A DNA stretch of 64,000 nucleotides from Candidatus Omnitrophota bacterium (GTDB lineage: Bacteria; Omnitrophota; Gorgyraeia; Zapsychrales; JANLHA01). Shown in pieces: positions 9,022 to 36,385 of the stretch; the stretch's first letter is position 1, and each line of letters opens with the position of its first letter. Location: assembly GCA_020632555.1 (NCBI GenBank), contig JACKFI010000001.1:133152-197151 (forward strand), written 5' to 3'. Under the pieces are notes generated by a model, which saw only the letters and a program-made list of their open reading frames with translations, was not told the DNA's origin and searched no databases. The position numbers were made by a program, and so were the translations under genes.

Positions 9022-9030
9022 TTTCTCTAT

Positions 9031-10452: not shown

Positions 10453-10462
10453 AAATCTCTCC

Positions 10463-11134
10463 TCAACGAATATTTTTGTAAAATTTTGCTAATCGCTGTG
10501 TGGACACACCTAAAATAAAACCCCAACTGAGTAAAATATTCATTAAGGTTGTTTTAACAATGCCTCGCTTTTCCCAACGCCGCGGCAAAACAGTGGCTGA
10601 TGAATCGAGAACAATGGTTTTACCTAACTGACGCAACTGTCGAGAGAAAAGCACATCTTCAAACAAAGGCACATTATCAAACCCACCGATTTGCTCAAAA
10701 ATATCTCGGCGGACAAAGATGGCTTGATCTCCATAAAAGATCTTAAATAATTCCGCACGCAAATTCCCAGACGATTCTATCCAACGATAAATCCATTTTC
10801 CAGAGTCAATCTTATGGGTAAAGCAACCGCCAACATAATTTAATAAAACTTGTTTAGCGATAATTCTCAATCCCTCCGCAGCGATGACACAGTCGGCATG
10901 TAAAAAAAGCAAAACATCTCCCTTTGCTGCACAAGCTCCCGCGTTCATTTGCACAGCTCTGCCGCGCGGGGATGTGATAACCTTCACTGAATACTGACCA
11001 ACAATATCCCTAGTCCTATCATTGCTATGACCGTCGACAACAATAACCTCAAGATCCGAAGCATAAGGCAGAGCCTTTAATGTTCTTTCAATCGCGGCCT
11101 CTTCGTTATAAACCGGAATAATAATAGAAATCAC
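10463..11134 (-). CDS. Family-2 glycosyltransferase, rSAM/ArsS-associated type (TIGR04283-like)
   Basis: GT-A strings IIIPVYNEE, VVDGHSNDRT, LLFLHADC. I moved the start to GTG 11134, which overlaps the upstream TGA stop as GTGA. The track ORF start at 11209 would overlap the upstream gene by 79 nt. Confidence 0.7.
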   Translation of the reverse strand: MISIIIPVYNEEAAIERTLKALPYASDLEVIVVDGHSNDRTRDIVGQYSVKVITSPRGRAVQMNAGACAAKGDVLLFLHADCVIAAEGLRIIAKQVLLNYVGGCFTHKIDSGKWIYRWIESSGNLRAELFKIFYGDQAIFVRRDIFEQIGGFDNVPLFEDVLFSRQLRQLGKTIVLDSSATVLPRRWEKRGIVKTTLMNILLSWGFILGVSTQRLAKFYKNIR

Positions 11135-12087
11135 TGCAAAGTTCCCTGACAACTGGATCCTGTTCCCGCGGTGCAACCAAAACAATGATTGGCGGTCAAC
11201 ACCTGCCAACTCTCCAAATCTTTTTTGGTAACATCAAAAACAGTAAGCTCATGATCCTTGCGCATTCCCATACCCAACATTTGATTAAAATCACAATCAA
11301 ACAGTTTCCCGTCCCAACCAATACTTAAGGTATTGCGACACATCAGTCCGTCTAAAGTGCCGGGATTAAAACTATTAACCAATAATTCACAATAACTTTC
11401 CAACTGATTAAATGTTTTTAAGAATTTGGCATAACGCGTAATGGGCATATTGGTGATGGTGTAAAGTTTATTAAAAACAATCCCGAAATCATCAGAAAGC
11501 CGCTGCTTGTAATCCTGTTGCAATTTCTCTTGTGCCGGTGGCAAATGCGCTCCGACGGGATTATAAACCAAATTCAACACAAGCCCACTATTGCTCTGCC
11601 CATACCCCAAGCGATTCAACTCTTGCAAAGCTTCAATAGATTTACCAAACACTCCCCTGCCTCGCTGTTGATCAACATTGTCTTGGGTATAACACGGCAA
11701 AGACGCAATCACCTCAACCTGATGCTGTGCCAGAAAATCTCCCAAGTCCTGCATGCCTTGTTCAAAGAGAATCGTTAAATTGCAACGGTCAATAATATGT
11801 ATTGCGCGCTGATGGGCTTGGTGCACCAAATAACGAAAGTGAGGATTCATTTCCGGCGCTCCACCCGTCAAATCCAAAGTCTTAGGATGAAATTCATCCA
11901 TTAACCGGACAATAGCCTGTGCTGTTCTCAAATCCATATTTTCTTTGACTTTGCTCGGCCCAGCCTCGACGTGACAATGAGAACAGGTCAAATTGCACAA
12001 CTTGCCTACATTGACTTGCAAAATGTCAATGCCCGTCTTGCGCAAATCATATTGATGTTGTGTTAATTTTTCTTTAAAGGATTTCAT
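11131..12087 (-). CDS. arsS: Radical SAM / Cys-rich-domain protein, ArsS-like (arsenosugar-type 5'-deoxyadenosyl transferase family)
   Basis: CNLTCSHC (CX3CX2C) radical-SAM cluster near the N-terminus. C-terminal Cys-rich tail NHCFGCTAGTGSSCQG matches the rSAM/selenodomain family as I recall it. Start taken at MKSFKEKL (12087). Confidence 0.75.
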   Translation of the reverse strand: MKSFKEKLTQHQYDLRKTGIDILQVNVGKLCNLTCSHCHVEAGPSKVKENMDLRTAQAIVRLMDEFHPKTLDLTGGAPEMNPHFRYLVHQAHQRAIHIIDRCNLTILFEQGMQDLGDFLAQHQVEVIASLPCYTQDNVDQQRGRGVFGKSIEALQELNRLGYGQSNSGLVLNLVYNPVGAHLPPAQEKLQQDYKQRLSDDFGIVFNKLYTITNMPITRYAKFLKTFNQLESYCELLVNSFNPGTLDGLMCRNTLSIGWDGKLFDCDFNQMLGMGMRKDHELTVFDVTKKDLESWQVLTANHCFGCTAGTGSSCQGTLQ

Positions 12088-12685
12088 GCATACTACCTGA
12101 TTTAATCTCATCTAAATCTTCTAAAACAGACACTGATTGATATTTTAATTTTAATTTTGTAATTATGTGATATGTCTGAGCTAAAACGTCGCTGGTGCTC
12201 CAACTGATATTCACGAACACTTGCGGATGATTCGCCGATAAACCAATCAAATAATAGCCGCCATCTTTAGCCGGCCCGATCACCACATCAATTTCATTAA
12301 GCAAGGCAAAACCTTGTTGAGCTATTGCAGTGGTCAAATGCAAAGTATCGCTGCCATAAGCGGCTACCCTTTTATACCCCTGAGCAAACGCCCAAGCAAA
12401 AGCCGACGTTAAACGCTGCCCCAAATCATCACCCTGCTGCGGAAGATACTCATCCGCACTGGGCAGCCACTGTTGAATTTTGTCATGATCCTCTGGCGGA
12501 TCAAAGAAAACGATCAAGTCTGTCTGCCCACAGGCCCGCAGAATAGAATAATTCTGCCCAGCCAATTGCCGATAAACTCGCGCGGCCGCTTGATCACCCA
12601 ATGTTTTGGCTAAGCGAGTCTTGACGTGTCCGGCCGTCGGATATTTCACAAAAAACAAAATCGCCTGTTGATTACGGCACGTCAT
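12074..12685 (-). CDS. DUF2064 / TIGR04282-like glycosyltransferase-fold protein (rSAM-associated transferase 1)
   Basis: 203 aa. N-terminal AILFFVKYPTAGHVKTRLA, later GDDLGQRL and DGGYYLIG, typical of DUF2064. Its 3' end overlaps the arsS-like gene. Confidence 0.7.
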   Translation of the reverse strand: MTCRNQQAILFFVKYPTAGHVKTRLAKTLGDQAAARVYRQLAGQNYSILRACGQTDLIVFFDPPEDHDKIQQWLPSADEYLPQQGDDLGQRLTSAFAWAFAQGYKRVAAYGSDTLHLTTAIAQQGFALLNEIDVVIGPAKDGGYYLIGLSANHPQVFVNISWSTSDVLAQTYHIITKLKLKYQSVSVLEDLDEIKSGSMHEIL

Positions 12686-17860: not shown

Positions 17861-18370
17861 CTAGAACTTGCGGCTATCATAGGCCCAATGCAACAATGCC
17901 TGACGCTGTTTACGACGACATGCTAAATCTCGAGGTTTACAATTTCTCTTTATTTGGGTGACATGGCGTTGCATAGCCCGCCAACGCTTGATCTGACGAA
18001 CATCCTCATCTGGTATGCGCCGGCCCATATAATAGCGACAATACCACTGAAACCAACCTCTGGGATCAGCTGGATGAATCCACCCTTTCATGCGCCAGGT
18101 ATGTAACGATTGACTAGCCTTTACCCCAAAAAAATTCGACTTTGAATCGTGACGCAAAGGACATAATTTCGCCTTCTTAAACCAAGTCGATGGAAACTCC
18201 TTGACACAATCGGTCATATACTTTCCACCAAAAACACCCAAAGATAACATCTGTTGTGGACTCAATTCAGGTTTGAATGCTTGATCAAAGTTCTTTCCCA
18301 TCGGTTGGACGAGTTGATAGTGGTAATTCTTTTGCATATGATCGTTTACAATAACAATCCTATGTCTCAT
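17861..18370 (-). CDS. Conserved hypothetical protein (basic, Trp/Arg-rich)
   Basis: Long ORF with well-conserved-looking strings GVFGGKYMTDC and GWFQWYCRYYMGRR. The start is uncertain (M16 at 18370 or M27 at 18337). It overlaps the end of the Nudix gene. Confidence 0.45.
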   Translation of the reverse strand: MRHRIVIVNDHMQKNYHYQLVQPMGKNFDQAFKPELSPQQMLSLGVFGGKYMTDCVKEFPSTWFKKAKLCPLRHDSKSNFFGVKASQSLHTWRMKGWIHPADPRGWFQWYCRYYMGRRIPDEDVRQIKRWRAMQRHVTQIKRNCKPRDLACRRKQRQALLHWAYDSRKF

Positions 18371-18923
18371 CGCTAATCCATTGACTGACGACAAACACAT
18401 ACCAAAGATTGGCACTAATCACCACTGCTTGCTTTATGGAGTTTAATAAAAATTGTTTTATTTCATTGACCGGGATAATAATCACTTCGATATCTTCCAA
18501 TGCCCCCAAATGCTGTTTTGGATTTTGATTCACCTGAGCATTTTCATCAATATAAACAAACACAACCCGTCCAGAATCATTGATGATTCCTGCTTGTGAT
18601 TTGATTAAAGGCCCCTTGTGTTTTATAAATCCAGTATATCCCGTTTCTTCCTTAAGTTCTTTGATAATTTGGGAATCGGAATGATTGTCTATTCCGGCCG
18701 GAAATCCGAGAATATAACCATTTATCGCAGGTCGGAATTGTTTAATCAATACAAATCTCCGAGATGGAATTAATTTTGCAATTATGACCACGCTAGAAGT
18801 ATTATTTTTACGAGCAACACTTTCCCAGCGTACTAAATCACCGTTTTTATTTTCATAAACGGTCTCTTTCAGCGATAACCAGCGGCCAGAATACAAATTA
18901 TTCTCAGTTATTCTTCTCATCAT
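18360..18923 (-). CDS. NUDIX hydrolase (ADP-ribose pyrophosphatase-like)
   Basis: 187 aa. Nudix-box-like GFPAGIDNHSDSQIIKELKEETGY. Confidence 0.7.
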   Translation of the reverse strand: MMRRITENNLYSGRWLSLKETVYENKNGDLVRWESVARKNNTSSVVIIAKLIPSRRFVLIKQFRPAINGYILGFPAGIDNHSDSQIIKELKEETGYTGFIKHKGPLIKSQAGIINDSGRVVFVYIDENAQVNQNPKQHLGALEDIEVIIIPVNEIKQFLLNSIKQAVVISANLWYVFVVSQWISDET

Positions 18924-19470
18924 TAACCAGTTCCCCAGATTGTTTTTGCCAGAGTTGAGGAACTTTACGTACTTTGCTCATATCATAACCCTGGTCTTTT
19001 AACATACTGATCAGACGCTGATAATCAGCCTCAGGAATTTCGGGAGTGCGCGCCATGATCCAAAAATAATCACGTTTATTGCGGCCAATAATGGTTTGAC
19101 TATAATCCGCGTTTAAATAGGTAATCAGATACTCCGCTTTAAAAGGCCAAATAAACTGCATCGCCCAGGTTGAGTTGTTGACCTTATCGACAACAAAACC
19201 ACGCGGATTGTATCGTTTAGCCGGTCCATCAAAACCGCCTTGATTAAAAGTAAAAATCGTGTCAATCGAACCATCGTCCAGCAGCCGGTATTCTTCAATG
19301 CCGTTATAAGCTTTGGTTTCTATAAAGGTGGGAATCGCCGCCAAAACATACCAAGGCCCCATAAATCTTTTCAAATCAACTTTCTCGGCAGTCTTCAACC
19401 GAGGCAGCGAACTGGCACAGCCGGTCACAAAAAAGGTGCACATTAAAATCAATATCGCTTGTATTCTCAT
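18904..19470 (-). CDS. blc: Bacterial lipocalin (Blc-like) outer-membrane lipoprotein
   Basis: 188 aa. Lipobox FFVTGC. Lipocalin signature FMGPWYVLAAIPTFIE and later YLITYLNADYSQTIIG. Confidence 0.75.
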   Translation of the reverse strand: MRIQAILILMCTFFVTGCASSLPRLKTAEKVDLKRFMGPWYVLAAIPTFIETKAYNGIEEYRLLDDGSIDTIFTFNQGGFDGPAKRYNPRGFVVDKVNNSTWAMQFIWPFKAEYLITYLNADYSQTIIGRNKRDYFWIMARTPEIPEADYQRLISMLKDQGYDMSKVRKVPQLWQKQSGELVNDEKNN

Positions 19471-19525
19471 ATTTCTCCTTTTGGTTTTAAAATCATTCTT
19501 AATTTATTGATCGTTCTCTTTATCA

Positions 19526-20311
19526 TCATCGCCGCTTTGGCAAGGGGATAAAGAAACTTGTTGTCCGCATATATTCTTTAAAGGCCTCTCCTTTATTCTT
19601 CAAAGCTCGTGTTTCCATCAGCGGGATTCCTGTCACTTTCATTAAAAGAAAGAGCATCAATGCTGGTGCGATGAAACCCCACCATCCCTGAGGACTGCCT
19701 AAAGCGAAGATAAAATAGGCCACCCACATCAGCCATTCAAAAAAGAAATTAGGATGTCGTGAATAATTCCATAATCCTTGCTGACAAATCTTGCCTTTGT
19801 TGTTTGAATCCGCTTTAAATTTTCTTAATTGTTCATCCGCTACCGATTCGCCGATCAGACCAATCAACCATATCACCACCGCGATAAGTTCAATCACCTT
19901 AATGGTTGGATCAGTATTGAGAAACGCAATAAAAAACGGGACGGACAGCACAACATTAAAAATTGGCTGCAGTTGGAAGATCACAAAAAAATTCCGCCCA
20001 GCTTGGCGCCCCCAATCTTCTCTAAATTGAGCGTAACGACTGTCCTCGCGTCCATCATGAATGATTCGCCGCAGCAAATGCGAGGACAAACGCAAGGTCC
20101 AAATGAAAATAGGCAGCAAAATCAACCACTTCCTTAATAGAAACCCATCTAAGTTGATCGCATACCAACCAACTAAAACAGACATGCCAATACTCCAACC
20201 CACATCAGCTGTTGACGCATCTTTGGTGCGCATTTGTATGCCCCACAACACCGTCTGCATCAAGACAAGCATCAGGTACCCTTTAAAAATGATGTCAAAG
20301 TTTTCGCTCAT
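19526..20311 (-). CDS. DUF1295 / steroid-5-alpha-reductase-like membrane protein
   Basis: 261 aa, multi-TM. C-terminal GLWNYSRHPNFFFEWLMW motif of the DUF1295/ICMT-like superfamily. 4-nt overlap with the upstream gene. Confidence 0.7.
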   Translation of the reverse strand: MSENFDIIFKGYLMLVLMQTVLWGIQMRTKDASTADVGWSIGMSVLVGWYAINLDGFLLRKWLILLPIFIWTLRLSSHLLRRIIHDGREDSRYAQFREDWGRQAGRNFFVIFQLQPIFNVVLSVPFFIAFLNTDPTIKVIELIAVVIWLIGLIGESVADEQLRKFKADSNNKGKICQQGLWNYSRHPNFFFEWLMWVAYFIFALGSPQGWWGFIAPALMLFLLMKVTGIPLMETRALKNKGEAFKEYMRTTSFFIPLPKRR

Positions 20312-20754
20312 TGTGGTTTATGATGGTTCGCCATTTTGTTTTTAACAAAACGCACCATCCCTCCTAAAATTGGTATACCTTCGTAGACAAACTCACCCAG
20401 ATCAAAATAATCCCGGTGATAAATAGCTTTGCCTTCTTTTCCTCCGAATTTAATAACCGATACGCCATCAACGATAACCGGTTGACCTTTATTAAAGTTT
20501 TTGGCTATCAATGTCATCTTCCAGACCAAACTGCAACTGTTGCCATCTCTGATCTGATCAGGAATATCCCAATGGATTGATTGAACATTGTTATACATGT
20601 TCCGATAATAATCCTTCATTTGCTGGCGATTGTTGACGGCGACTAAAGGATCAAGAAATTTGATATTCTCGTCGTAAAATTGATCAACCAGATGCATGGT
20701 ATCCTTGTTGAGTGCTTCAAAAAATTCTTTGGGTGTTAAGATTTCAGCAGCCAT
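20308..20754 (-). CDS. SnoaL/NTF2-like fold protein
   Basis: 148 aa. Size and pattern (FYDENIKFLDPL ... SLVWKMTL ... GVSVIKF) fit the nuclear transport factor 2 / SnoaL-like family. Confidence 0.5.
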   Translation of the reverse strand: MAAEILTPKEFFEALNKDTMHLVDQFYDENIKFLDPLVAVNNRQQMKDYYRNMYNNVQSIHWDIPDQIRDGNSCSLVWKMTLIAKNFNKGQPVIVDGVSVIKFGGKEGKAIYHRDYFDLGEFVYEGIPILGGMVRFVKNKMANHHKPQ

Positions 20755-20777
20755 AGATAACTCTCCTTATCAGCTGA

Positions 20778-21773
20778 TTAAATAAGATTGTTGACCTTTA
20801 GTAAACCACACAACTGTTTTAATGTAAATCGCTTATTAACTGCCAAATACGTCTGCTGTTTATTCGCTTTGTAATGATCTTTATGCTGACCAATGGTCTG
20901 ATAATTGTAAAATAAACTTGTCCGATAAATCAGTTGAAATATCTTTTCTGCGAATTGTGAATATGGGAATGATTGATTGTTCCTTTGATATAAGGGCGCC
21001 AATCCTAATGATATCTGTTCGAATCCTTCTTGTTTAAATTGAAACAAAGCATTGAGTATTAAAAAATCCTGGGATCCTAAAGGCGCTTTATCAGATACCC
21101 GAAGATGTTGAAGGGTGTAACTTAACACCTGACCTGTGTTCATTTTAGAAAAAATTGGATCAAAAGTGCAAAATCCAATGATATCTTTGTTTTTGACCAT
21201 ATAGAAATATCTAACCCCTGGCTCTTTGGTCCCATTAAAGGGCCGAGCCATAAACCGCAATTCTTTAGAACCCGGTTTTACTTTGAGCCATTGATCATTG
21301 ATGTCCCAGACTTTTTGAGCGTCAGCGTTATACTCAAAAACAAAATACTTTTGATTATTCAATTTTGAAAGATAACTCTTTAAACATTTTCTTTTTTTCC
21401 AAGACACCTCAAAATCTTGAGTATTGATCACATGCTCAACACCAAACCCATTGATTGTATAATTTAAACATTTTAATACTGTTGCATAGTCATAAGAAAT
21501 CTGACAATAAACAGCATTTTTGTGCTTTTGCTCAAACAAAACGGTTGCTTTTAACATTTCACTTTTGGGTGTTATCGGATCAGAAAGCACAAAATCAACA
21601 CCCCAAACAGATGTATAAGGAATAAAGCCTTGAAACGACGGATGACGAAATTCTCGAATGTCTTTCTGAAGAGCTGAATAAGACATGCTATTGGTACCGT
21701 ATTTCAAGATATTTTCAATCTTTATATGATTGTCAAAATTTACCAATGATTTATTTAAGGTTTGTCCGCTCAT
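20778..21773 (-). CDS. DUF2156-like protein (aminoacyl-phosphatidylglycerol synthase C-terminal-domain family)
   Basis: 331 aa. Pattern GFIPYTSVWGVDFVLSDPI ... GFGVEHVINTQDFEVSWKKRKCLKSYLSK resembles the MprF/LPG-synthase C-terminal tandem-GNAT domain. Called from memory of the family. Confidence 0.45.
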   Translation of the reverse strand: MSGQTLNKSLVNFDNHIKIENILKYGTNSMSYSALQKDIREFRHPSFQGFIPYTSVWGVDFVLSDPITPKSEMLKATVLFEQKHKNAVYCQISYDYATVLKCLNYTINGFGVEHVINTQDFEVSWKKRKCLKSYLSKLNNQKYFVFEYNADAQKVWDINDQWLKVKPGSKELRFMARPFNGTKEPGVRYFYMVKNKDIIGFCTFDPIFSKMNTGQVLSYTLQHLRVSDKAPLGSQDFLILNALFQFKQEGFEQISLGLAPLYQRNNQSFPYSQFAEKIFQLIYRTSLFYNYQTIGQHKDHYKANKQQTYLAVNKRFTLKQLCGLLKVNNLI

Positions 21774-21945
21774 GATAAATTCCTCTCTGGTCTAGGCATA
21801 ATTGGGCCAAGGTCCCCCTACCAAAAAATAATTGGGTCCCATCTTTTCCTTATTGATTGTTCTCTTTGAAGGCTCTTGCTCAACAAAACAATCTTTGCAA
21901 TTTATACCGTGCAACTTTGCATAAATTGTTTGCGCTAATCTTTTT

Positions 21946-23214
21946 TTATCCAATAGTGTTTGTGCACACATGATTCATCTCCCTTTTTAGTTTATGTGTT
22001 CTTCCGTATTTCTTATGGGCTTGAGTAAAGTGTCCGGCCGCAATGGCAGCCGCAATTGAGATTTCTCCTGCCAGAACAGTGGCGGCACAAATTTCAGCAA
22101 ACTTTTTTGATTTATCTTTTCCATAACAATCCATCAGTTCTAAACATTCTTTCTGAGTGGGAAGATGCGTTCCTCCACCCACAGTGCCCACAATCAAATT
22201 GGGCAATGAAATGGAGATATAAAGATCCCCTTGTTTGGTTAACTCCGCCCTGGAGGTCCCTGTTGAGGACTCAGCAACACAAGCAGCATCTTGACCACAA
22301 GCAATAAAAAGAGCTGTCAAAGCATTGGAGAAATGCGCATTGACCCCAATAGAACCACTGTGAATGCCGCCGACCATAGCCATATTGCTATACTCAACAA
22401 ATTCTTCAGGCGTTGTATGCAAAAACTTTTTGACTAGCAATTTATTGATAGTAACTTCGGCCAACATATTTTTTCCTCTACCTGCATATTGAGATAGCCT
22501 AGTGGCCTTTTTATCTCCAGAAAGATTGGCATCGATATACCATTTATTGGGTTTAATGGGACTGAACTTTTCAATATAGTGACAAATCGCGTCGGTGGCG
22601 ATAGTCACCATATTCTGCCCAGCCGCATCCCCGCTAACAAACTTAAAGTTAATCCAAACATATTTACCGTCTATCTTAGAATCAAAATCTTCAAGGTGAC
22701 CATAACGGGTTGTTGTTGTAACGATATCTCTTAAAATAGTAAAATGCTCTGATACCCAAGCCACAAATTGCGCGGACTCAAAAATACTATTAAAAATAAA
22801 TCCAGGCGAGCGCGTTATCGTTTCGGAAATACACAAAACATTCGCTCCACCACTGAGTGTTATAATCTTTGCTCCTCTGTTATAGGAGGCCACCAAAGCC
22901 CCTTCAGTGGTCGCTAATGGGACGTGCCATGAGCCACCCGCATAAGCCCCATTGACTCTCAAGGGACCAATCAATCCAATTGGAATCTGAGCCATACCAT
23001 AAAAGTTCTCTATATTCCCATCAAAAATACTGGGATCTTGAATCTTCTTGATTCCAGCCAAATAAGGCCCAGCTGGCGGTTGCTGATTTTTCATAGGTTT
23101 TACCCCAATCCCGTGATTCTTAATGTTATTTTTTATTTGACCTAAAACTTCCGAATCAATGATTGTATTTAACCTCGTTTTCATTTGACTTTTTGATATA
23201 TACATTTCGCTCAC
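21946..23214 (-). CDS. Hydroxymethylglutaryl-CoA reductase
   Basis: 422 aa. ENFYGMAQIPIGLIGPLRVNG, PLATTEGALVAS, SGDAAGQNM, GTVGGGTHLPTQ. Its start abuts the stop of the upstream gene (23214/23215). Confidence 0.9.
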   Translation of the reverse strand: MSEMYISKSQMKTRLNTIIDSEVLGQIKNNIKNHGIGVKPMKNQQPPAGPYLAGIKKIQDPSIFDGNIENFYGMAQIPIGLIGPLRVNGAYAGGSWHVPLATTEGALVASYNRGAKIITLSGGANVLCISETITRSPGFIFNSIFESAQFVAWVSEHFTILRDIVTTTTRYGHLEDFDSKIDGKYVWINFKFVSGDAAGQNMVTIATDAICHYIEKFSPIKPNKWYIDANLSGDKKATRLSQYAGRGKNMLAEVTINKLLVKKFLHTTPEEFVEYSNMAMVGGIHSGSIGVNAHFSNALTALFIACGQDAACVAESSTGTSRAELTKQGDLYISISLPNLIVGTVGGGTHLPTQKECLELMDCYGKDKSKKFAEICAATVLAGEISIAAAIAAGHFTQAHKKYGRTHKLKREMNHVCTNTIG

Positions 23215-23823
23215 CTACCTTTCCACTCGCATGGCGAGTTGCTCTTGACGAAAGTTCTGGTCATTTTTTAACCCTAGGATTTGATTTTTTAAATTCTGAT
23301 CAAATGGTTTTTCCCCAATCCATACCGAAAATAAAGCCTTGGCAAAATCATTGCCTTGAATAACTCCGGTGAGTTGATCATTATGAGCAAACTTTGTACC
23401 AACTCCGGGAATATACGTTAATGAAAATCTATCGCCGGGTTTTAAATCAACAAAATATTGGCCCATTAAATCAACTTCTGCGGCAATGCTGTTGAATTGC
23501 TCATTGGTTATATTTTCTTTCATCGTATCAATTGTAAAATTGTTGAGTTTTTTGCCAGGGATTTTAACGAAATACTCAACTTCAATTCTTTTTGCTGTCT
23601 GGCCGAGAACAATTTCTTGATCAATCGCATCTGTATAAAAACCAGCAACAAAGGCCTTAAAAAAGACCACGGTCTTTAAACCTGTTCCTTGAAGAGTCAT
23701 GCTAATGCCTTCGTCTTGATAAGTCTCTTCAAAATTAACGCCAACAATCTGTGCCGCATTGGCATTGAATGAAATAAAAATGCTGCACAAAAAAGTTGTG
23801 ACAAAAATATTAATTTTCTTCAT
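23215..23823 (-). CDS. Secreted chalcone-isomerase-like (fatty-acid-binding fold) protein
   Basis: Start moved to MKKINIF (23823). Signal peptide ..FNANAAQ. VAGFYTD and C-terminal KALFSVWIGEKPFDQNLKNQILG resemble the bacterial Chalcone_3 family. Confidence 0.5.
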   Translation of the reverse strand: MKKINIFVTTFLCSIFISFNANAAQIVGVNFEETYQDEGISMTLQGTGLKTVVFFKAFVAGFYTDAIDQEIVLGQTAKRIEVEYFVKIPGKKLNNFTIDTMKENITNEQFNSIAAEVDLMGQYFVDLKPGDRFSLTYIPGVGTKFAHNDQLTGVIQGNDFAKALFSVWIGEKPFDQNLKNQILGLKNDQNFRQEQLAMRVER

Positions 23824-24313
23824 TTGACCTCCCCTGACTATTGGCACTGTTTAAGATGGATGAAGTCGTATAATTAAAAGCAACTCCTAAATAACCCATG
23901 CTCTTGGACTGCATAGAACCTTTGAAATAATTTTGGCTTTGTTGATACTCTAGCTGGTCGGGGAAAAACATAGCCGCGATATATTGACAGCTTATGGTAA
24001 ATTTTCTTTTTGGAGAGACCAGAACACTAAAATATCTATCCGTCAAATCCGGCACTATCCGACTTTCCTCAATATCCCAAAAAAGGAAATTATTAACCAT
24101 CACGGGAAAGTCATTGGGATTAAATATCGTTATTAATATGTCGTGGCGTGTTCTCAGTTCACCATGCTGATCTGTAGTTCCACAAATAAAATCAGCCCGA
24201 TTCTCATACTCAATAGGATCTTGAATATATGCTTGGACGCTGACAACAGTGCTGGCCGCAATGATTGCAGCAAAAAGTAGAATTTTGATAAGTTGATTGA
24301 TTTTGACTGTCAT
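23810..24313 (-). CDS. Hypothetical secreted protein
   Basis: Start moved to MTVKINQL (ATG 24313), preceded by AAGGAG. N-terminal signal/TM helix. No recognisable domain. Confidence 0.5.
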   Translation of the reverse strand: MTVKINQLIKILLFAAIIAASTVVSVQAYIQDPIEYENRADFICGTTDQHGELRTRHDILITIFNPNDFPVMVNNFLFWDIEESRIVPDLTDRYFSVLVSPKRKFTISCQYIAAMFFPDQLEYQQSQNYFKGSMQSKSMGYLGVAFNYTTSSILNSANSQGRSNEEN

Positions 24314-24431
24314 TGCTCTGCTCTCCTTTATGTTGCTAGAATAGCAGGCTCCAAAAAACAATCAACGCCGCATGATACACTACATAACATGTATATAAAA
24401 GTAAGTGTTTAGTATATTTCTTGAAATCTTC

Positions 24432-25256
24432 TTAAAGCGTTTGAAGATAAGTGGTTAGGTTAACATCCTTGTTTGTTATACCTAATTTATTGCGGATTCT
24501 GTTCCGATGAGTCTCTACAGTCTTGGAAGAAATGTTTAACATTTCTACAATTTCTTTGCTGCTAACTCCGTTTTTAATGAGATTGGCGATCTCGACTTCA
24601 CGTGGGGATAATTTCAACTGCTGCTCAGAAACCTTAATGCCAAAAGTTGAAGTTAAGTCTTTCAAGTTCTTCTCTAAAATGTCAATATACTTTTTGTCTA
24701 AGCGGGTTCCTTTTCGCTTGATTTTCTTTAAAGCGGGAATCAAAACTTCCTCGACATTCATCACAACCCCTTCTTTGATTCTTTTTTTCTCTAATTCTAT
24801 TTGCTCCAAAATCTCCTTCAATGCCCCATTTTTTTGCTCGATAGCTTGCTCTGATTTCTTGCGATCGGTTATGTCATGCTGAATAGCGATATAATGAGTC
24901 AAATTCCCCGATTCATCCTTGATGGGCTCAATATGCCACTCATTCCAAAACTCGGAACCATCTTTGCGATAGTTAATGGCTTGCCCATAAAACACTTCTC
25001 CGGCTTCTAATGCTGCTCTAAGCCTGCGGGTAACAGATTGATCTGTCTTTGGCCCTTGTAGGATGCGAGGCGTCTTTCCCAGCACGTCCTCGGGCAAATA
25101 GCCGGTCATCCTTGTAAAACCCGGATTCACATAAAGAATTTTAGGGCCGGGCGGATCCAAATCTTTTGTTGTGACAATAATCGAATCTTGAGTAAAGTGA
25201 ACCACAGAGGCCAGAAGCTTTTCATCTGCTTGATATTTTGAATTGTATTGACTCAT
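24432..25256 (-). CDS. LOV-like PAS domain + LuxR-type HTH transcriptional regulator
   Basis: PAS core PKILYVNPGFTRMTGYLPEDVLGKTPRILQGPKTDQ ... INYRKDGSEFWNEWHIEPI ... HYIAIQHDITDRK. Coiled linker. C-terminal LSPREVEIANLIKNGVSSKEIVEMLNISSKTVETHRNRIRNKLG. Start taken at MSQYNSKY (25256, AGGAAA upstream); the track ORF extends to 25325. Confidence 0.85.
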   Translation of the reverse strand: MSQYNSKYQADEKLLASVVHFTQDSIIVTTKDLDPPGPKILYVNPGFTRMTGYLPEDVLGKTPRILQGPKTDQSVTRRLRAALEAGEVFYGQAINYRKDGSEFWNEWHIEPIKDESGNLTHYIAIQHDITDRKKSEQAIEQKNGALKEILEQIELEKKRIKEGVVMNVEEVLIPALKKIKRKGTRLDKKYIDILEKNLKDLTSTFGIKVSEQQLKLSPREVEIANLIKNGVSSKEIVEMLNISSKTVETHRNRIRNKLGITNKDVNLTTYLQTL

Positions 25257-25556: not shown

Positions 25557-26690
25557 TTAAGTGTCCTTCAATGCGTAACTTGTGCTGCGCCCACCCGCGG
25601 TTTCTTTTACTAAAATACCCTTTTCAACAAGATCGAGAATATCGCGCAACGCCGTGTCCTGTGAACACTGGGTGATCTTCGCCCATTTAGAAGAAGTGAG
25701 CTTGCCTTCAAAACCATCAAACAACTTATTGATGATCATCTTCTGCCTCTCGTTAAGGGATTGGGCAGGATGAGATTCCCAAAAACGCGCTTTCTTAAAT
25801 ACACCCGACAAAGTATTTTCAGTTGCATCCAACGCCCGACCCAAACAGCTCAGGAACCACACAAGCCATGGCGTAATATCAATGCCGTCTTTTGTGGCAC
25901 GGTTACTTTTCTGTGTTTTTTCAAGAATATCATAATAGGCATTCCGTTCCTGCCGGATCTGATTCGACATGCTGTAAAAACGCTCCCGGCTGCCGTCGGC
26001 ACGTGCCAGTTGCATATCGGCAATAGCCCGGGCAATTCTTCCGTTACCATCATCAAAAGGATGAAGTGTCACAAACCACAAATGCCCAATACCAGCTTTG
26101 AGCACAGGATCTAAATCCTTTGTGAGCGAAATCGAAGTGTTAAACCATTTCAGAAATTCCTTCATTTCACTTTTAAGACGGTTGGCCTGCGGTGCTTTAT
26201 AATGAACCTTCTCCCGGCCGATAGGACCAGACACAACTCTCATGGGACCATGCTTATCGTCGCGCCAATCAGCCACTGTAATTTTATGCATTCCGCTTCT
26301 ACCGGTTGGGAATAAACTGGCATGCCAGCCAAACATTCGATCCTGCGTAAGGGGCTTGTCAAATTTCTGTGTGGCATCGAGCATCATTTCCACCACTCCA
26401 TCCACATGACGATCAGAAGGCACAAGTCCACCGATGTCCATGCCCAGCCTGCGTGCAATGGATGACCGCACTTTGGCAGGGTCAAGAATCTCACCTTCAA
26501 TTTCACTACTTTTTAAAACATCAAGGGTGAGAGTCTGCAGGATTGCCTCGGAACGCAAAGAAAAACCCAATGCTTCCATTCTTCCAATCAGTCGCCCTTG
26601 GCGATTGCGGACAGTCCCCAAGATAGACGCGACCTTTTCGTGATCCCATGTCAATTTAGGCCAAATGGTTAATTCATGAATGTATTTCAT
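25557..26690 (-). CDS. Fic/DOC family protein (AMPylase-type) with N-terminal DUF4172-like region and C-terminal winged helix
   Basis: 377 aa. Fido motif HPFDDGNGRIARA. N-terminal WPKLTWDHEKV. C-terminal ..ALRDILDLVEKGILVK. Confidence 0.9.
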   Translation of the reverse strand: MKYIHELTIWPKLTWDHEKVASILGTVRNRQGRLIGRMEALGFSLRSEAILQTLTLDVLKSSEIEGEILDPAKVRSSIARRLGMDIGGLVPSDRHVDGVVEMMLDATQKFDKPLTQDRMFGWHASLFPTGRSGMHKITVADWRDDKHGPMRVVSGPIGREKVHYKAPQANRLKSEMKEFLKWFNTSISLTKDLDPVLKAGIGHLWFVTLHPFDDGNGRIARAIADMQLARADGSRERFYSMSNQIRQERNAYYDILEKTQKSNRATKDGIDITPWLVWFLSCLGRALDATENTLSGVFKKARFWESHPAQSLNERQKMIINKLFDGFEGKLTSSKWAKITQCSQDTALRDILDLVEKGILVKETAGGRSTSYALKDT

Positions 26691-26721
26691 GGCAAATTCC
26701 TGCGGTGAATAGTCTCATTAT

Positions 26722-26765
26722 TCTACGCATACTATGCGGAGAATATACCATGTTTTCTCCGCATA
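26722..26765. promoter_or_regulatory. Candidate operator upstream of fic
   Basis: Palindrome TCTACGCATA-c-TATGCGGAGA (26722-26742) plus a third half-site TCTCCGCATA (26756-26765), 30-75 nt upstream of the fic ATG. Confidence 0.35.
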
Positions 26766-26877
26766 CACAAGAGAGATTTAAATCTATATTGCTCCCTACT
26801 AAAAGAAAGCGTCATTGGATATAACGGCTATGTCCAATCATATCCAATTATTGAATCTTTCCATGAGATTTGAAACG

Positions 26878-26895
26878 ATGTGCCGGATTCCTGCC
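26878..26895 (-). promoter_or_regulatory. sigma54-promoter-like motif, degenerate copy 4, fused to an 18-nt palindrome
   Basis: Minus strand reads GTAGGCAGGAATCCGGCACATCG (3 differences from the 18-nt core). About 190 nt upstream of fic. Overlaps CCTGCCTACCGGCAGGCA (26890-26907). Confidence 0.25.
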
Positions 26896-26918
26896 TACCG
26901 GCAGGCAGGTGTGCCAAG

Positions 26919-27866
26919 TTATAATCGATCTGAATATTGTGAGATTGTACTTAAAATTTCATCAAACGATATTTGCCCCTGATAATACAATGTTGCAGTT
27001 TTTAGGCACTCCTTCTTAAATTGATCTCTTATCTTCGTATCTTTCAGCAAAAAAGCCTCCTGCTTTGCAATAGGAAACTTTTGATCTGCGACGGGAAATC
27101 TCTTCTTCTTATGCTCGTTGTATTCTGAAGTCCCGATAAACTTCTGAACCGTATCGTTTTGCAAAAGGCAAGCAACATCGTAATAATGCCGGATAAAATT
27201 AGCAGGCATCTTTCCGGACTCTTGCAGTTTCCGAAACTTTGTTGCGATTGTTTGCAATTTCTCAACAAACGTATAACCCAGATGATAGCACAAAACACCA
27301 CCAGCTCTATTATCCTTAACCTTGAGTCCATTCTGCAATGCAAAATCAAGCGCCCAAGAGCTAATATCCATCGGGCTGTTGGGCGTCACCTCATCAAACC
27401 CAACTTCGAGCAATACACCCTCTTTTATGCCGCCGGCAACAGAGAAAGCACTTTTGTAAAAAAGCCGTATTCCACCGCTAAAGAATTTTTCATTATCAAA
27501 TTCCGTGTCACGAATAATTCTTTGTATCCCATCAATATTAATTTTCTTCGCCAACCAGTCATAGTATTTCTTACGGCTTGCACAATGATCTGGTTTTATA
27601 TGGTTTGGACCTGTCTTGACTTCCATGCCGGCAGGCGGTTCGATACGAATATCAATGTCCTCAGAAAATCGATGAATAATGCCATACCCTTTTGAGAGCG
27701 ACGTACCTCCTTTGAGCTCGAAGGTAAATCCCCCTTGTTGCAAACCATATAAAACATGCATGATCCAATAATCTTTTTCAACCAGACTACGCTCTATCTT
27801 TTTTTCATGCTCTACAGCTCGCAAGAGTTCTTTAAATTCAGCGTGGTTATGTAAATAATCAGACAT
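26919..27866 (-). CDS. AbiEii/AbiGii nucleotidyltransferase toxin (type IV TA, DUF1814)
   Basis: 315 aa. LKGGTSLSKGYGIIHRFSEDIDI nucleotidyltransferase motif. 8-nt overlap with the upstream antitoxin-like gene. Confidence 0.85.
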   Translation of the reverse strand: MSDYLHNHAEFKELLRAVEHEKKIERSLVEKDYWIMHVLYGLQQGGFTFELKGGTSLSKGYGIIHRFSEDIDIRIEPPAGMEVKTGPNHIKPDHCASRKKYYDWLAKKINIDGIQRIIRDTEFDNEKFFSGGIRLFYKSAFSVAGGIKEGVLLEVGFDEVTPNSPMDISSWALDFALQNGLKVKDNRAGGVLCYHLGYTFVEKLQTIATKFRKLQESGKMPANFIRHYYDVACLLQNDTVQKFIGTSEYNEHKKKRFPVADQKFPIAKQEAFLLKDTKIRDQFKKECLKTATLYYQGQISFDEILSTISQYSDRL

Positions 27867-28452
27867 GTGCTAAGTTTCCCTCTAACATCCATTGATTAAA
27901 TAAAGTTTTTGTTCTTTCTCCTGCATAAACATTGACCGCGCGCTTCATCTGAGATTCTGGTTCTTTCAGCACTTTTTCCTTAACACTTCGCAAAACACTT
28001 TCCCGATCTTCCGCTAACTCATTTAAATTGTTCAGTAAATCAACCAGTAGAAATTCTTCGGACAATTCTCTGGGGAATTTATGCTTTAATCGAAAATCAA
28101 ACTCCTTTCCACCAAGAACGAATTGACCATGCCGTTTATGATTATAAACAAAGCGCGTATTGTACAACTGCGTAGTTCCCACTCCTAAAGAATTGTAAAG
28201 GTTAGGCGAGGTTAAAAGAAAATCATCGCTTTTTAAGAAGGCCCGTACCAATTTTTCGTCTTCCGGTGGCACAGAGCCAAACGAGGCTTTTGCAGGATAA
28301 TAGTACAATCCCTGTGACATTTTTTGCAAGGTCCCCTCATCAACCAGTTGCTTTAAATGCCGATCAACCGCGGTTGACCATTGCTCCAGATCAACCCTGC
28401 GATAAACCTGTCCCGGTTTTAAATGCCTTTTAAGTTCGCTAAGCGCGTCCAC
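27859..28452 (-). CDS. AbiEi-family antitoxin-like protein (wHTH)
   Basis: 197 aa. N-terminal wHTH-like HLKQLVDEGTLQKMSQGLYYYP. Positioned directly upstream of AbiEii and overlapping it. Confidence 0.65.
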   Translation of the reverse strand: MDALSELKRHLKPGQVYRRVDLEQWSTAVDRHLKQLVDEGTLQKMSQGLYYYPAKASFGSVPPEDEKLVRAFLKSDDFLLTSPNLYNSLGVGTTQLYNTRFVYNHKRHGQFVLGGKEFDFRLKHKFPRELSEEFLLVDLLNNLNELAEDRESVLRSVKEKVLKEPESQMKRAVNVYAGERTKTLFNQWMLEGNLAHV

Positions 28453-30546: not shown

Positions 30547-31560
30547 TCATATTGAAACGTGGCATTGCCCATTGCCAAGATCAACAAAATTAATTTTAAC
30601 ATCCATGAACTTCTCAATAATCTCGGCATTGGTAAGGCTGTGCAGCGTCAGGGCCGTAGTTTTAAATTCTCCACCTTTGGCCAAAGCAAACGGGATCAAA
30701 AGCTGATCAGCCAAATACGTCCCCACCGGAGCATCGATTTGTAAATATTTCTTTACTTGTTCAATGGCTTCATGCGCTACTGCTTCCGCGCTTTTACGCA
30801 ATTCTCCGAAACCCACAAACATTTCCCTGATATTTTCACTATCAACCTCAACCGTAAAAATATTTCCCGGACCTTGAGAATCCATGGCTTGAAAAATCTC
30901 ACTTTGATCATCTTCCAGAGAAAAATGTTTTTTAGCGACCGCGATTTCTCTGACAGCAACATTGCCAGGGATTTGGGCAAAGAGTGATCTTGCCTTTATG
31001 CCTTTAAGTTTGCCGCGCTCTAACAAAAATATGGGTTTTAATTTCTTTATAGGCACAATTTTAGCTTCGATCTTTCCGCCGCCGGCCGGGTAAAAACCGT
31101 GGCGATGCAAAGTCACTTCTAAATCCACACCCATTTGTTTGAGAATCGGCGCAAAAACTATTTTTAAAAAATCCACCGGGGGTGCGAAAGGATTATGCGT
31201 TCCTCCTTCGATCACAATTATGGATGGTGAGTCCGCGATCATCAAAGCCGGTAAAATGGTTTGCAAAACAAGAGTCGCGCTACCCGCCGTCCCAACTGAA
31301 AAATGGTATTCCCCTGCGGTGACTTCTCCCGGATAGAAAGTCAGCTTTTGCGAGCCGATAACATTCCCATCGACCTTTGCATCTCCAATCTTCGTAGCTG
31401 CTTCGACAGCCGTTAAATGCTGGCGTAAAAGCCCCGGCTTACTACGCTTAGCGCGGATATTCTCAATCGTAAACGGCTCGCCCGTTACTAAGGACAACCC
31501 GAGAGCTGTCCTTAGTATTTGGCCCCCGCCTTCACCGATTGAACCGTCGATTTTAATCAT
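30547..31560 (-). CDS. rtcA: RNA 3'-terminal phosphate cyclase RtcA
   Basis: 337 aa. MIKIDGSIGEGGGQILRTALGLSLVTGEPFTIENIRAKRSKPGLLRQHL, HRHGFYPAGGG, YLADQLLIPFALA. ATGA overlap with the upstream SPFH gene. Confidence 0.92.
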   Translation of the reverse strand: MIKIDGSIGEGGGQILRTALGLSLVTGEPFTIENIRAKRSKPGLLRQHLTAVEAATKIGDAKVDGNVIGSQKLTFYPGEVTAGEYHFSVGTAGSATLVLQTILPALMIADSPSIIVIEGGTHNPFAPPVDFLKIVFAPILKQMGVDLEVTLHRHGFYPAGGGKIEAKIVPIKKLKPIFLLERGKLKGIKARSLFAQIPGNVAVREIAVAKKHFSLEDDQSEIFQAMDSQGPGNIFTVEVDSENIREMFVGFGELRKSAEAVAHEAIEQVKKYLQIDAPVGTYLADQLLIPFALAKGGEFKTTALTLHSLTNAEIIEKFMDVKINFVDLGNGQCHVSI

Positions 31561-32306
31561 TTGACCTCTTTGGTTCTCACCGGAACGACTTGACCCGATA
31601 CTCCTAAGACAATCGTACTTCCCGGTGATTGTAAAGCTCGCAATTGCAATAACGCAGGATTGTCTTCCAACACTTTAGAAACATTGGCCAAATTGCGCAA
31701 AGACGCGGTTTCTCCGCGGGCACGTTCCAATGCCGCCAACCCTTCTTTTTGCGCCTCAACAACCTTAGCAAAGATTTTCTTTAATTCACCCGGAAACATA
31801 ACGTCCTTAACGCCGATGAGCGTAATTTTTAAACCGATTTCCTTCGCTTTGGCAACCGTCGCTTCCATCAACTTTTGATTAATCGTTGCTCGCTGTGCCA
31901 AAACCTCATCGATCGCTAAAGAGCCAATGATGTCACGAACTGCCAATTGTACCACCGCGTATAAAGCCTCGGTGTAACTAGCGATCTTATTAACGGCGAT
32001 GTTGGCATCTTCGATCTCATATTGCGCCGTAATGCTGACCTTTAAGGACACATTGTCCGAACTTAAGACTTCCTGCCCCGGGATCGTGATGACTCGAGGA
32101 CGAACATCGATCTTAACGATGATCGTATTCTGAGAAAACTTAAAATAACGACCCGGTTCCAAAATTCCGACAAATTTTCCCTTGCGATATTTTAAACCCT
32201 TCTCATATTCAAGAATAGTGACAAAATATTTTGCACTAAAAACCGCAATGACGACCCAACCGATAAAGCCGAGCACCGCCATGCTTACTAATGTTGATAA
32301 TGTCAT
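31557..32306 (-). CDS. SPFH/band-7 (stomatin/slipin-like) membrane protein
   Basis: 249 aa. N-terminal TM helix. SPFH core VDVRPRVITIPGQEVLSSDNVSLKVSITAQYEI, then a coiled AKVVEAQKEGLAALERARGETA segment. Confidence 0.85.
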   Translation of the reverse strand: MTLSTLVSMAVLGFIGWVVIAVFSAKYFVTILEYEKGLKYRKGKFVGILEPGRYFKFSQNTIIVKIDVRPRVITIPGQEVLSSDNVSLKVSITAQYEIEDANIAVNKIASYTEALYAVVQLAVRDIIGSLAIDEVLAQRATINQKLMEATVAKAKEIGLKITLIGVKDVMFPGELKKIFAKVVEAQKEGLAALERARGETASLRNLANVSKVLEDNPALLQLRALQSPGSTIVLGVSGQVVPVRTKEVK

Positions 32307-34120: not shown

Positions 34121-34163
34121 TTGTTTTTCCCTTATATTGCCCCTTTCCTTTATCGTTGCTTAA

Positions 34164-36384: not shown

Positions 36385-36385
36385 A

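Follow-up and report, generated by a model that had tools for sequence, protein, structure and literature searches.

Why should the gene for a 3-hydroxy-3-methylglutaryl-coenzyme A (HMG-CoA) reductase (HMGR) lie within a compact run of lipid-related genes in a bacterium, with no other gene of the mevalonate (MVA) pathway in view? The question is raised by a 64-kb stretch of DNA (the window) located on a 197-kb contig of a Candidatus Omnitrophota metagenome-assembled genome, whose proteins appear at NCBI as MCB9756923-49 (locus tag H6753_) and in which nine consecutive minus-strand genes, at positions 17861-24313, include the one for HMGR. A preliminary description of this run proposed that it might make, modify or shuttle an unusual isoprenoid- or acyl-derived envelope lipid or, alternatively, that the reductase might be of the degradative type. 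We arrive at a different reading, to which we give a probability of roughly 0.6, namely that the nine structural genes and a tenth upstream of them, for a LOV-like PAS/LuxR regulator, form a photoprotection operon that this regulator controls in response to light or redox state. The organising principle of the locus is regulatory, rather than one dedicated lipid pathway. The domain assignments, the gene order and the co-occurrence of gene families in other bacteria on which the preliminary description drew have stood up; the degradative reductase has not, and two elements had been left out, the regulator gene just upstream (24432-25256) and a conserved open reading frame (ORF) of 16 codons.

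A cysteine-less LOV-like regulator and its predicted operator

The regulator gene (24432-25256, minus strand) is predicted to encode a protein of 274 amino acids in which a LOV-like PAS domain (PAS_9, 83 bits) is joined through a coiled coil of ~75 residues to a LuxR/GerE helix-turn-helix (HTH; GerE, 53 bits). The GerE match spans residues 239-286 of the long ORF and aligns with the HTH of EL222. The PAS domain compares best with LOV families, giving 116 bits with the NCBIfam model YtvA_fam, which is under the cutoff of 250 for that model, and matches of 1e-27 to 1e-21 with solved LOV domains. The residues that contact the flavin in LOV domains (YtvA R63, Q66, R79, N94, N104 and Q123) are conserved in the window regulator and in five orthologs when these are aligned with YtvA and EL222. 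The cysteine that forms the flavin adduct (motif GxNCRFLQ) is replaced by proline in the window regulator, where the motif is GKTPRILQG, and the same region reads GK[TS]PR[IF][LF]QG in all six clade regulators compared (window plus five orthologs), with a second substitution of Asn by Thr or Ser. Because of the exchange of Cys for Pro, we class the window regulator as a putative LOV* (cysteine-less LOV-like) protein and not as a canonical LOV photoreceptor. Natural cysteine-less LOV-like domains, with Pro variants explicitly included, have been described as flavin-binding and as responsive to reduction by light or by chemical means (Yee et al., PMC4682037). We infer that the window regulator binds flavin too, and its signal might plausibly be light, redox state or both.

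Proline is found at the adduct position also in four relatives from a representative library (P0309, P0364, P0325 and P0429). Another protein, P0416, has the same coiled-coil and LuxR output module as the window regulator, fused to a canonical LOV domain that contains the Cys and to a second PAS domain, and in P0388 a canonical LOV domain stands in tandem with a Pro-type LOV* domain. Because of these two architectures, the Pro-type domain (PR[IFL]LQGPKT[DE] ... NYRKDGSEF.NEWHI.P) appears to be a conserved PAS subfamily in its own right. No part of the block is better conserved than the regulator, which is 70-74% identical among relatives and adjoins HMGR in six other genomes (local tblastn). 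One related locus, which we number L087, has two copies of it, the full-length one and, between this and HMGR, an N-terminally truncated one (L087:3022-3759, 69% identical over residues 80-297), and each of the two has its own copy of the operator after it.

When the spacers that separate the regulator from the first structural gene in six genomes were aligned, invariant columns emerged from which we predict an operator consensus for the clade, tCATGTA-N7-9-TACATG-N3-4-TGTAG, together with an invariant GCGTTG that contains a -35-like TTGAyy and, after a spacer of 16-17 nt, an extended -10 element, TGnTAT; GCGTTG and TGnTA are also kept in the related loci L087, L090 and L091. The predicted operator of the window (24380-24407, minus strand, from the spacer alignment) consists of TACATGTTATGTAG at 24380-24393 and an upstream half-site, CACTTAC, at 24401-24407; the 64 kb contain no other match. 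The predicted promoter (24338-24365, minus strand) has its -35 element, TTGATT (24360-24365), inside the invariant GCGTTG and, with a 16-nt spacer, the extended -10 element TGCTATTCT (24338-24346); a predicted ribosome-binding site, AAGGAGAG, lies at 24321-24328. The exact palindrome CATGTA-N7-9-TACATG occurs in eight of the 96 loci that were fetched, all eight of them belonging to the clade and every site being in promoter position, and this search was more informative than a position-weight-matrix scan for further copies, which gave one site per locus only. In L091, where the regulator does not adjoin HMGR, the operator site is nevertheless found in front of HMGR, and in L087 a site precedes a second sub-operon in which Chalcone_3 and folE are followed farther on by glutathione peroxidase (GSHPx) and YceI and, farther still, by a lipocalin.

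Control of the operon appears to rest with a one-component regulator that acts on an extended -10 promoter of the sigma-70 type, and the position of the operator upstream of the -35 element suggests that the regulator activates, rather than represses, the adjacent promoter. A scan for consensus promoters and terminators was uninformative by itself (37 promoter-like sites against 26 expected), and scans with Rfam and for tRNAs gave no match in or near the operon.

Conservation of the block among relatives

HMGR relatives at 57-81% identity exist, and the clade comparison was made with eight other genomes in which HMGR is 57-73% identical to that of the window. The gene order is conserved in these genomes, with orthology confirmed by local tblastn: the regulator adjoins HMGR in six of the eight, and a gene for a DUF2156 protein follows HMGR in seven. 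The order in L081 (HMGR 73% identical) is regulator, Chalcone_3, HMGR, DUF2156, SnoaL, DUF1295, a protein of ~160 amino acids that has only a weak Polyketide_cyc/SRPBCC match (unk160), glutathione peroxidase and a Trp/Arg-rich (W/R-rich) protein, with YceI and then DUF547 and lipocalin farther along; immediately upstream of the regulator is a fasciclin gene. A similar order is found in L087 (70%) and L088 (72%), with CMAS, a methyltransferase like cyclopropane-fatty-acid (CFA) synthase, and with folE and GSHPx. In L085 (58%) the regulator is followed by Chalcone_3, HMGR, CMAS, DUF2156, SnoaL, DUF1295 and DedA, and at a distance by DUF523/DUF1722 and DNA photolyase, while in L082 (69%) thioredoxin/DsbD precedes the regulator, HMGR, DUF2156 and GTP cyclohydrolase I, with YceI and NAD-epimerase/DUF2867 farther on. 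The orders in the remaining three loci are PPK2, regulator, HMGR, DUF2156, unk160, DUF1722 and photolyase in L090; YaaA, HMGR, DUF2156, unk160 and photolyase in L091; and, in L084 (61%), HMGR and photolyase, beyond which lie genes for a PAS histidine kinase and a LuxR response regulator.

Clustering across the loci separates a near-constant core, made up of the regulator, HMGR and DUF2156, from a frequent shell of unk160, SnoaL, the chalcone-isomerase-like (CHI-like) protein, DUF1295 and photolyase. Throughout the clade the reductase stays tied to the regulator or operator and/or to DUF2156, and its companions include DNA photolyase, YbgA-like DUF1722, GTP cyclohydrolase I, CFA-synthase-like methyltransferases, glutathione peroxidase, YceI and lipocalin. 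A photoprotection guild of genes is present at the level of the clade; the window copy of the operon is a reduced version, which holds only the DUF1295, SnoaL, CHI-like and lipocalin members of the guild. With a LOV-like/LuxR regulator and its operator at the head, and with photolyase, folE and glutathione peroxidase in the block of the relatives, the operon would carry the signature of a light or singlet-oxygen stress regulon.

The reductase, the DUF2156 protein and the micro-ORF

The HMGR gene (21946-23205, minus strand) encodes a soluble protein of 419 amino acids, without a membrane domain, that matches PF00368 (HMG-CoA_red) at 376 bits against a cutoff of 27. It scores 350 bits with TIGR00533, the model for the NADPH-dependent class I enzymes, and 39 bits with TIGR00532, the model for the degradative enzymes, whose cutoff is 260; because the former score is under the TIGR00533 equivalog cutoff of 442, we consider the protein to be a divergent member of class I. 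Of the solved structures, 6hr7, an archaeal class I enzyme, matches best (2.8e-93), with the human enzyme at 2.7e-64, and no class II structure is found among the PDB matches at 1e-20 or better. In the alignment to 1dq8 and 6hr7, the motifs TTEGALVAS, SGDKKAT, ACGQDAA, AAGHFTQAHKKYGR and GTVGGGT are conserved and the HMG-contact positions as well, and the motif with the catalytic histidine reads AAGHFTQAH. The roles of the individual residues (the Glu of TTEGALVAS, the D-K-K of the cis-loop, the Asp of ACGQDAA and the His of AAGHFTQAH) are taken from the published structures of human HMGR. By sequence the protein is thus a class I reductase of the NADPH-dependent, biosynthetic type with all of its catalytic residues present, and the suggestion that it might be degradative fails on the scores for the two models and on the identity of its best solved relative.

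It had been noted earlier that no other MVA gene accompanies the reductase, and this is correct: HMG-CoA synthase, GHMP kinase and decarboxylase were not found in the 64 kb, nor did Pfam scans of all window ORFs of at least 110 amino acids reveal genes of the methylerythritol phosphate (MEP) or carotenoid pathways. The precomputed Pfam lists of the eight related genomes contain no MVA gene within 10 kb on either side of HMGR. An MVA gene stands beside HMGR in 0/88 other HMGR loci, as judged from Pfam scans of the ten commonest neighbour families and the Pfam lists of the clade, and for this reason the lack of neighbouring MVA genes carries little weight. Lone HmgR genes in bacteria with a complete MEP pathway have been treated as an open question (PMC13001223). 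In the literature searched there is no report that ties a bacterial HMGR to photolyase or to light, and nothing relevant on Omnitrophota and mevalonate.

A neighbour-joining tree places the operon-linked HMGRs of the nine genomes in one clade, next to bacterial HMGRs that head clusters with DUF3419 and UbiA. No second HMGR from the large contigs of the clade is found among the best 120 homologs. An HMGR-anchored scan of species-representative genomes gave 80 loci (L001-L080) at identities of up to 61%, and the other genes of the module are absent from all 80. The closest homologs outside the clade (45-61% identity) belong to Omnitrophota, Planctomycetota, Verrucomicrobiota, Lentisphaerae, Bacteroidota, Nitrospirota and cyanobacteria, and in L001-L080 they head a widely conserved cluster of their own that is not beside MVA genes (for example, L002:2551-9000 and L041:10001-17442). 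That cluster has DUF3419 (BtaA-like) in 54 of the 80 loci and, in 52 of them, a membrane protein of ~450 amino acids with motifs that, by our own reading, resemble those of polyprenol/phytol kinases; it also has a GNAT protein of ~350 amino acids and a fatty-acid CoA ligase and, as optional members, a UbiA prenyltransferase and an 867-aa enzyme like phosphoenolpyruvate synthase, rifampin phosphotransferase and PigC. The literature searched has nothing on a cluster of DUF3419 with HMGR. Homology between this GNAT protein and DUF2156 was considered and rejected (hhalign probability 0.3%).

The DUF2156 gene (20778-21773, minus strand) encodes a stand-alone protein of 331 amino acids whose match to PF09924 (LPG_synthase_C, 117 bits) extends over residues 22-311. 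The protein matches the lysyl-phosphatidylglycerol synthase domain 4v36 (1e-11 over residues 18-318) and the solved alanyl-phosphatidylglycerol synthase domain, and on the 841-residue model of bifunctional MprF it covers only positions 520-830, without the N-terminal membrane flippase domain. Its subfamily numbers 27 members in 5.8 billion proteins, nearly all of them on contigs that carry HMGR, and a metagenome scan anchored on it returned a single locus. DUF2156 comes after HMGR in eight of the nine genomes, either directly or with one ORF between, and the start and stop of the two genes overlap in L081, L087 and L090.

In the window, HMGR and DUF2156 are separated by 172 nt, the largest gap in the run, and within this spacer is the putative coding micro-ORF MGPNYFLVGGPWPNYA (21792-21842, minus strand, 16 codons). 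Its core, GPNYFLVGGP[WY]PNY, recurs in L088 (4006-4086), again between HMGR and DUF2156 and with 25 amino acids from the nearest Met, and in L087 (9988-10149), as a called gene of 53 amino acids after GTP cyclohydrolase I. The micro-ORF product could be a small protein of the regulon or a peptide substrate of the aminoacyl-tRNA-transferase-like DUF2156 protein.

The other structural genes

All nine genes of the run are present in the ORF listing as they had been described (raw span 17861-24361), and from homolog lengths and inspection of the sequence we refined the starts of the hypothetical (24313), CHI-like (23823), HMGR (23205) and W/R-rich (18370) genes. Neighbouring genes overlap by 14, 4, 20 and 11 nt or, apart from the spacer after HMGR, are separated by gaps of 9, 23 and 55 nt. 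Pfam bears out six of the domain calls made earlier, Chalcone_3, HMG-CoA_red, LPG_synthase_C (= DUF2156), SnoaL_2, DUF1295 and Lipocalin_2. Signal peptides and lipoboxes were read from the N-termini (MTVKINQLIKILLFAAIIAASTVVSVQA, MKKINIFVTTFLCSIFISFNANA and ...FFVTGC).

The first structural gene (23810-24313, minus strand as are all the others) encodes a putative secreted or anchored protein of 167 amino acids with a hydrophobic N-terminal segment, read from the sequence; it has no match in Pfam or NCBIfam and no homolog in the related loci, and is private to the lineage of the window. It is followed by the gene for a CHI-like protein (CHIL; Chalcone_3, 123 bits), predicted to be periplasmic (23215-23823), which is also present in L081, L085, L087 and L088. 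Beyond HMGR and DUF2156 are a SnoaL_2/NTF2-like gene (20308-20754, 49 bits), conserved in L081, L085, L087, L088 and L089, and, overlapping it by 4 nt, a gene for a DUF1295 membrane protein like steroid 5-alpha-reductase and ICMT (19526-20311; DUF1295 227 bits, Steroid_dh 52 bits), conserved in L081, L085 and L087. The gene for a Blc-type lipocalin lipoprotein (18904-19470; Lipocalin_2, 130 bits) has 71% identical copies in the L081 and L087 clusters. The call of a Nudix hydrolase for the next gene (18360-18923) agrees with the annotation at NCBI but is weak on domain evidence (NCBIfam NudE, E=1e-5; Pfam NUDIX, E=0.02, under the cutoff), and as tblastn did not find the gene in the related clusters it, too, is private to the lineage of the window.

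The last gene (17861-18370) encodes the W/R-rich protein of 169 amino acids, which has no Pfam family and no fold match and belongs to a family with >8000 homologs at ~70% identity; the gene also occurs in the L081 cluster (L081:9764-10270). The family, which is represented also in loci L093-L096, spans Omnitrophota, Patescibacteria (Gracilibacteria and Peregrinibacteria) and one Bathyarchaeia metagenome-assembled genome. In a genome of the Patescibacteria its gene adjoins those for DUF1295, DUF2177, TspO, a peroxiredoxin (AhpC) and undecaprenyl-diphosphate synthase, and these neighbours indicate the same photo-oxidative guild.

Comparison with known systems

The preliminary description stated that genes for DUF1295, lipocalin, NTF2-like and chalcone-isomerase-like proteins occur together in other bacteria, and annotated replicons of Ralstonia and Acinetobacter confirm it. 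In Ralstonia, a MerR-family regulator gene is followed by GTP cyclohydrolase I, FAD-oxidoreductase, DUF1365, CFA synthase, DUF1295 and another CFA synthase, and then by DUF2878, lipocalin, a member of the chalcone-isomerase family, a second lipocalin, cryptochrome/photolyase, a TIGR01777 oxidoreductase and photolyase. An Acinetobacter plasmid carries NudC, lipocalin, desaturase, FAD-oxidoreductase, DUF1365, CFA synthase and DUF1295, with genes of the chalcone-isomerase and NTF2 families close by. Light induces in Pseudomonas a regulon made up of phrB, ufaM (CFA-synthase family), folE and cryB together with a short-chain dehydrogenase and hypothetical proteins (PMC9758184). CFA1/2, GPX5 and a fasciclin-like protein belong, along with DUF1295 and DUF2177, to the SAK1 regulon with which Chlamydomonas answers singlet oxygen (PMC4067076), and Vibrio cholerae under blue light induces photolyases and a CFA synthase via ChrR and MerR (PMC5241685). 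The match to these sets leads us to regard the Omnitrophota block as a version of the photo-oxidative protection guild. The literature searched held nothing relevant on DUF1295, lipocalin, chalcone isomerase and photolyase taken together.

The guild that the clade shares with light regulons of the LitR/CarH (MerR) type in Pseudomonas and relatives, taken together with the equivalent clusters of Ralstonia and Acinetobacter, consists of photolyase, GTP cyclohydrolase I, a CFA-synthase-family methyltransferase (UfaM), a NAD-binding oxidoreductase, DUF1295, lipocalin, the chalcone-isomerase family and NTF2-like genes (PMC9758184). The LitR/CarH regulons employ MerR/LitR with a B12 or short-LOV partner, whereas the Omnitrophota block employs a LOV-like PAS-LuxR protein, adds HMGR and DUF2156 and is without the FAD-oxidoreductase/DUF1365 (UfaD/UfaO-like) pair; the window copy is also without photolyase, folE and CMAS. 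With the SigmaE-ChrR regulons of Rhodobacter and Vibrio and with the SAK1 regulon the common set is CFA synthase, photolyase, glutathione peroxidase, fasciclin-like protein, DUF1295 and DUF2177 (PMC5241685, PMC4067076), but the extracytoplasmic function (ECF) sigma/anti-sigma pair of SigmaE-ChrR is lacking from the Omnitrophota block. Neither a MerR/LitR nor an ECF sigma/ChrR regulator is found in the window or the clade loci, where the LOV*-LuxR protein takes the regulatory position.

Like EL222, the window regulator combines in one polypeptide a LOV-like PAS domain at the N-terminus with an HTH of the LuxR type at the C-terminus, and its predicted site is a palindrome upstream of a promoter; it differs from EL222 in the Pro for Cys and in the long coiled coil between PAS and HTH, and the two are 27% identical overall. 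With BAT-LOV* of Halobacterium, a flavin-binding domain that reacts to reduction by light or by chemical means, it shares the Pro at the Cys position and the retention of other conserved LOV residues (PMC4682037). Bat differs in its GAF-PAS-HTH architecture, its domain of life and its target genes. Bat also controls isoprenoid (retinal/carotenoid) genes.

Among the structural genes, the window HMGR matches the full catalytic domain of known class I enzymes (archaeal 6HR7, human 1DQ8) and keeps their TTEG, DKK, CGQDAA, GH...AH and GTVGGGT, yet it is without a membrane domain, lies inside a stress operon instead of beside MVA genes and belongs to a clade of its own. PF09924, the C-terminal domain of MprF and the aminoacyl-phosphatidylglycerol synthases, spans the whole of the window DUF2156 protein, which, in contrast to MprF, is stand-alone and soluble, has no flippase or membrane domain and belongs to a 27-protein subfamily tied to HMGR. 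The HMGR-DUF2156 pair is a lineage-specific addition to a known guild. The guild and the concept of light/singlet-oxygen regulons are known already; new, as far as the literature searched shows, are a LOV*-LuxR regulator of the Pro type together with its operator, the phylum, and the addition of HMGR and DUF2156 (plus the micro-ORF).

A model for the operon and its alternatives

The gene content, synteny, operator conservation and class of reductase described above lead us to the following model. The regulator would bind flavin, and reduction of the flavin, by blue light or by chemical means, would alter its conformation or dimerisation, as in natural cysteine-less LOV* domains. The regulator would then bind tCATGTA-N8-TACATG...TGTAG, centred ~55-65 bp upstream of the predicted start site, and from there would probably activate the adjacent extended -10 promoter. 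The products of the operon might guard the envelope against photo-oxidative damage, with the CHI-like protein and Blc as lipid binders of the periplasm and outer membrane and DUF1295 as a membrane enzyme like the reductases and methyltransferases, with an NTF2 partner. The relatives would add lipid methyltransferases, peroxidases and DNA photolyase with the cofactor-supply gene folE, and the two clade-specific additions would be the NADPH-type class I HMGR and the soluble, aminoacyl-tRNA-transferase-like DUF2156 protein. Our preferred explanation for HMGR, the key and rate-limiting enzyme of mevalonate synthesis, under a stress promoter is that it would raise the supply of mevalonate and isoprenoids (quenchers, quinones and polyprenyl lipids) under light or oxidative stress; the model is at its weakest in this purpose and in the substrate of DUF2156. 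A bolder combination, which we entertain only tentatively, is that the Pro-type LOV*-LuxR protein represents a new class of flavin light/redox transcription factors and that HMGR, the micro-ORF and DUF2156 form a new stress-induced pathway outside the canonical MVA pathway. One possibility within this combination is that mevalonate, or an alcohol derived from it, would be aminoacylated from aminoacyl-tRNA to yield a protective envelope compound.

Several observations weigh against the photoprotection model. The case for control by light is one of guilt by association. The upstream half-site of the window operator is degenerate, and the 64 kb contain no match to photolyase, CMAS, folE, GSHPx, YceI, DUF1722, PPK2 or unk160. 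In none of the nine loci was a carotenoid, polyprenyl-synthase or other MVA gene seen, the HMGR tree is a neighbour-joining tree without support values, and expression of HMGR under stress only would be hard to reconcile with growth if MVA were the sole route to isoprenoids. The best summed PDB match of the regulator is the flavin adenine dinucleotide (FAD)-PAS redox sensor MmoS, and because the adduct-forming cysteine is missing, in fact from every clade regulator, the regulator may sense redox state or oxygen instead of light. The same operon might then answer redox, oxygen or peroxide stress in the dark, its Cys-less flavin-PAS protein acting like MmoS, NifL or Aer and its linkage to photolyase being incidental to a general oxidative-stress island. 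We regard this as possible but doubtful. It would account for GSHPx, AhpC-like proteins, DsbD/thioredoxin and the peroxide-stress protein YaaA among the neighbours, and BAT-LOV* does answer chemical reduction as well as light (PMC4682037). However, photolyase and its usual companions (DUF1722/YbgA and folE) are found in the same co-directional, tight runs in L085, L090 and L091, a linkage that weighs for a light signal since photolyase is of no use in the dark; in P0416 a canonical Cys-LOV domain is joined to the same output module; and the gene guild matches that of regulons that are experimentally light-responsive (PMC9758184).

The other alternatives concern the structural genes. A dedicated module for one unusual isoprenoid- or acyl-derived envelope lipid, with HMGR supplying the precursor, DUF2156 aminoacylating it, DUF1295 and SnoaL modifying it and the CHI-like protein and Blc carrying it, seems to us rather unlikely, even though HMGR, DUF2156, SnoaL and DUF1295 are tightly coupled in a conserved order, the DUF2156 subfamily is near-exclusive to HMGR contigs, the relatives add the polyisoprenoid-binding YceI, DedA/VTT and a weakly SRPBCC-like lipid binder, and the closest HMGRs outside the clade are in isoprenoid-flavoured clusters with UbiA prenyltransferase. 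Across the clade, genes enter and leave the block, and the regulator, HMGR and DUF2156 alone are near-constant; no locus has an enzyme that forms prenyl chains; and in proteobacteria the DUF1295, lipocalin, CHI-like and NTF2 genes occur without HMGR and DUF2156, beside CFA/furan-fatty-acid genes and photolyases. That HMGR might be simply a housekeeping gene of the MVA pathway, its place among stress genes being functionally meaningless, would fit with the frequent dispersal of bacterial MVA genes and with the finding that the best 120 homologs include no further HMGR from the large contigs of the clade; it is made improbable by the retention of its position across nine genomes, down to 57% identity and beside the same operator while other genes vary, and by the start/stop overlaps with DUF2156. 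A degradative, NAD-dependent class II enzyme that catabolises mevalonate has nothing to recommend it beyond the lack of neighbouring MVA genes and, in view of the 39 bits with TIGR00532 against 350 for NADPH class I and of PDB matches without a class II structure to 1e-20, is hardly credible.

Neighbouring genes in the window

On one side of the block, positions 8344-12685 (minus strand) hold co-directional genes for DUF2064, a radical-SAM protein with DUF3641, a family-2 glycosyltransferase (GT2), a pyridine-nucleotide-disulphide oxidoreductase and DedA/VTT, with a TetR regulator next to them (7672-8268); since VTT and GT2 have homologs near the HMGR block in L084, L085 and L090, this run represents synteny within the clade. 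Directly upstream of the regulator (25557-28452) and beyond (35977-38471) are mobile and defence genes (Fic/DUF4172, an AbiEii toxin with its DUF6088 partner, a HEPN and nucleotidyltransferase pair and a Mutator-family, IS256-like transposase), where the relatives carry other genes. An RNA-repair locus at 30547-35842 has RtcA cyclase, SPFH/Band-7 and RtcB ligase on the minus strand and a divergent gene for the sigma-54 activator RtcR. Three tandem paralogs of ~644-673 amino acids at 45975-51943 (minus strand) each have a C-terminal Peptidase_S74 domain, an intramolecular chaperone of the endosialidase or tail-fibre type.

Implications for the Omnitrophota

If the photoprotection model is true, the operon would be the first indication of the sensing of light or photo-oxidative stress in Omnitrophota, an uncultured phylum of mostly nano-sized cells, and if the regulator does represent a new class, there would be a blue-light response in uncultured organisms that are supposed to live in the dark. 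A compact, natural cysteine-less LOV-LuxR regulator with a candidate operator would be relevant to optogenetics and to the proposed origin of LOV domains from redox sensors. HMGR, which is usually seen as a housekeeping or 'orphan' gene in bacteria, would become linked to a stress regulon and to photolyase, and a tiny subfamily of DUF2156 proteins would be defined. DUF1295, the CHI-like proteins, the W/R-rich family with its >8000 members and the SRPBCC-like protein of 160 amino acids would gain one common functional context.

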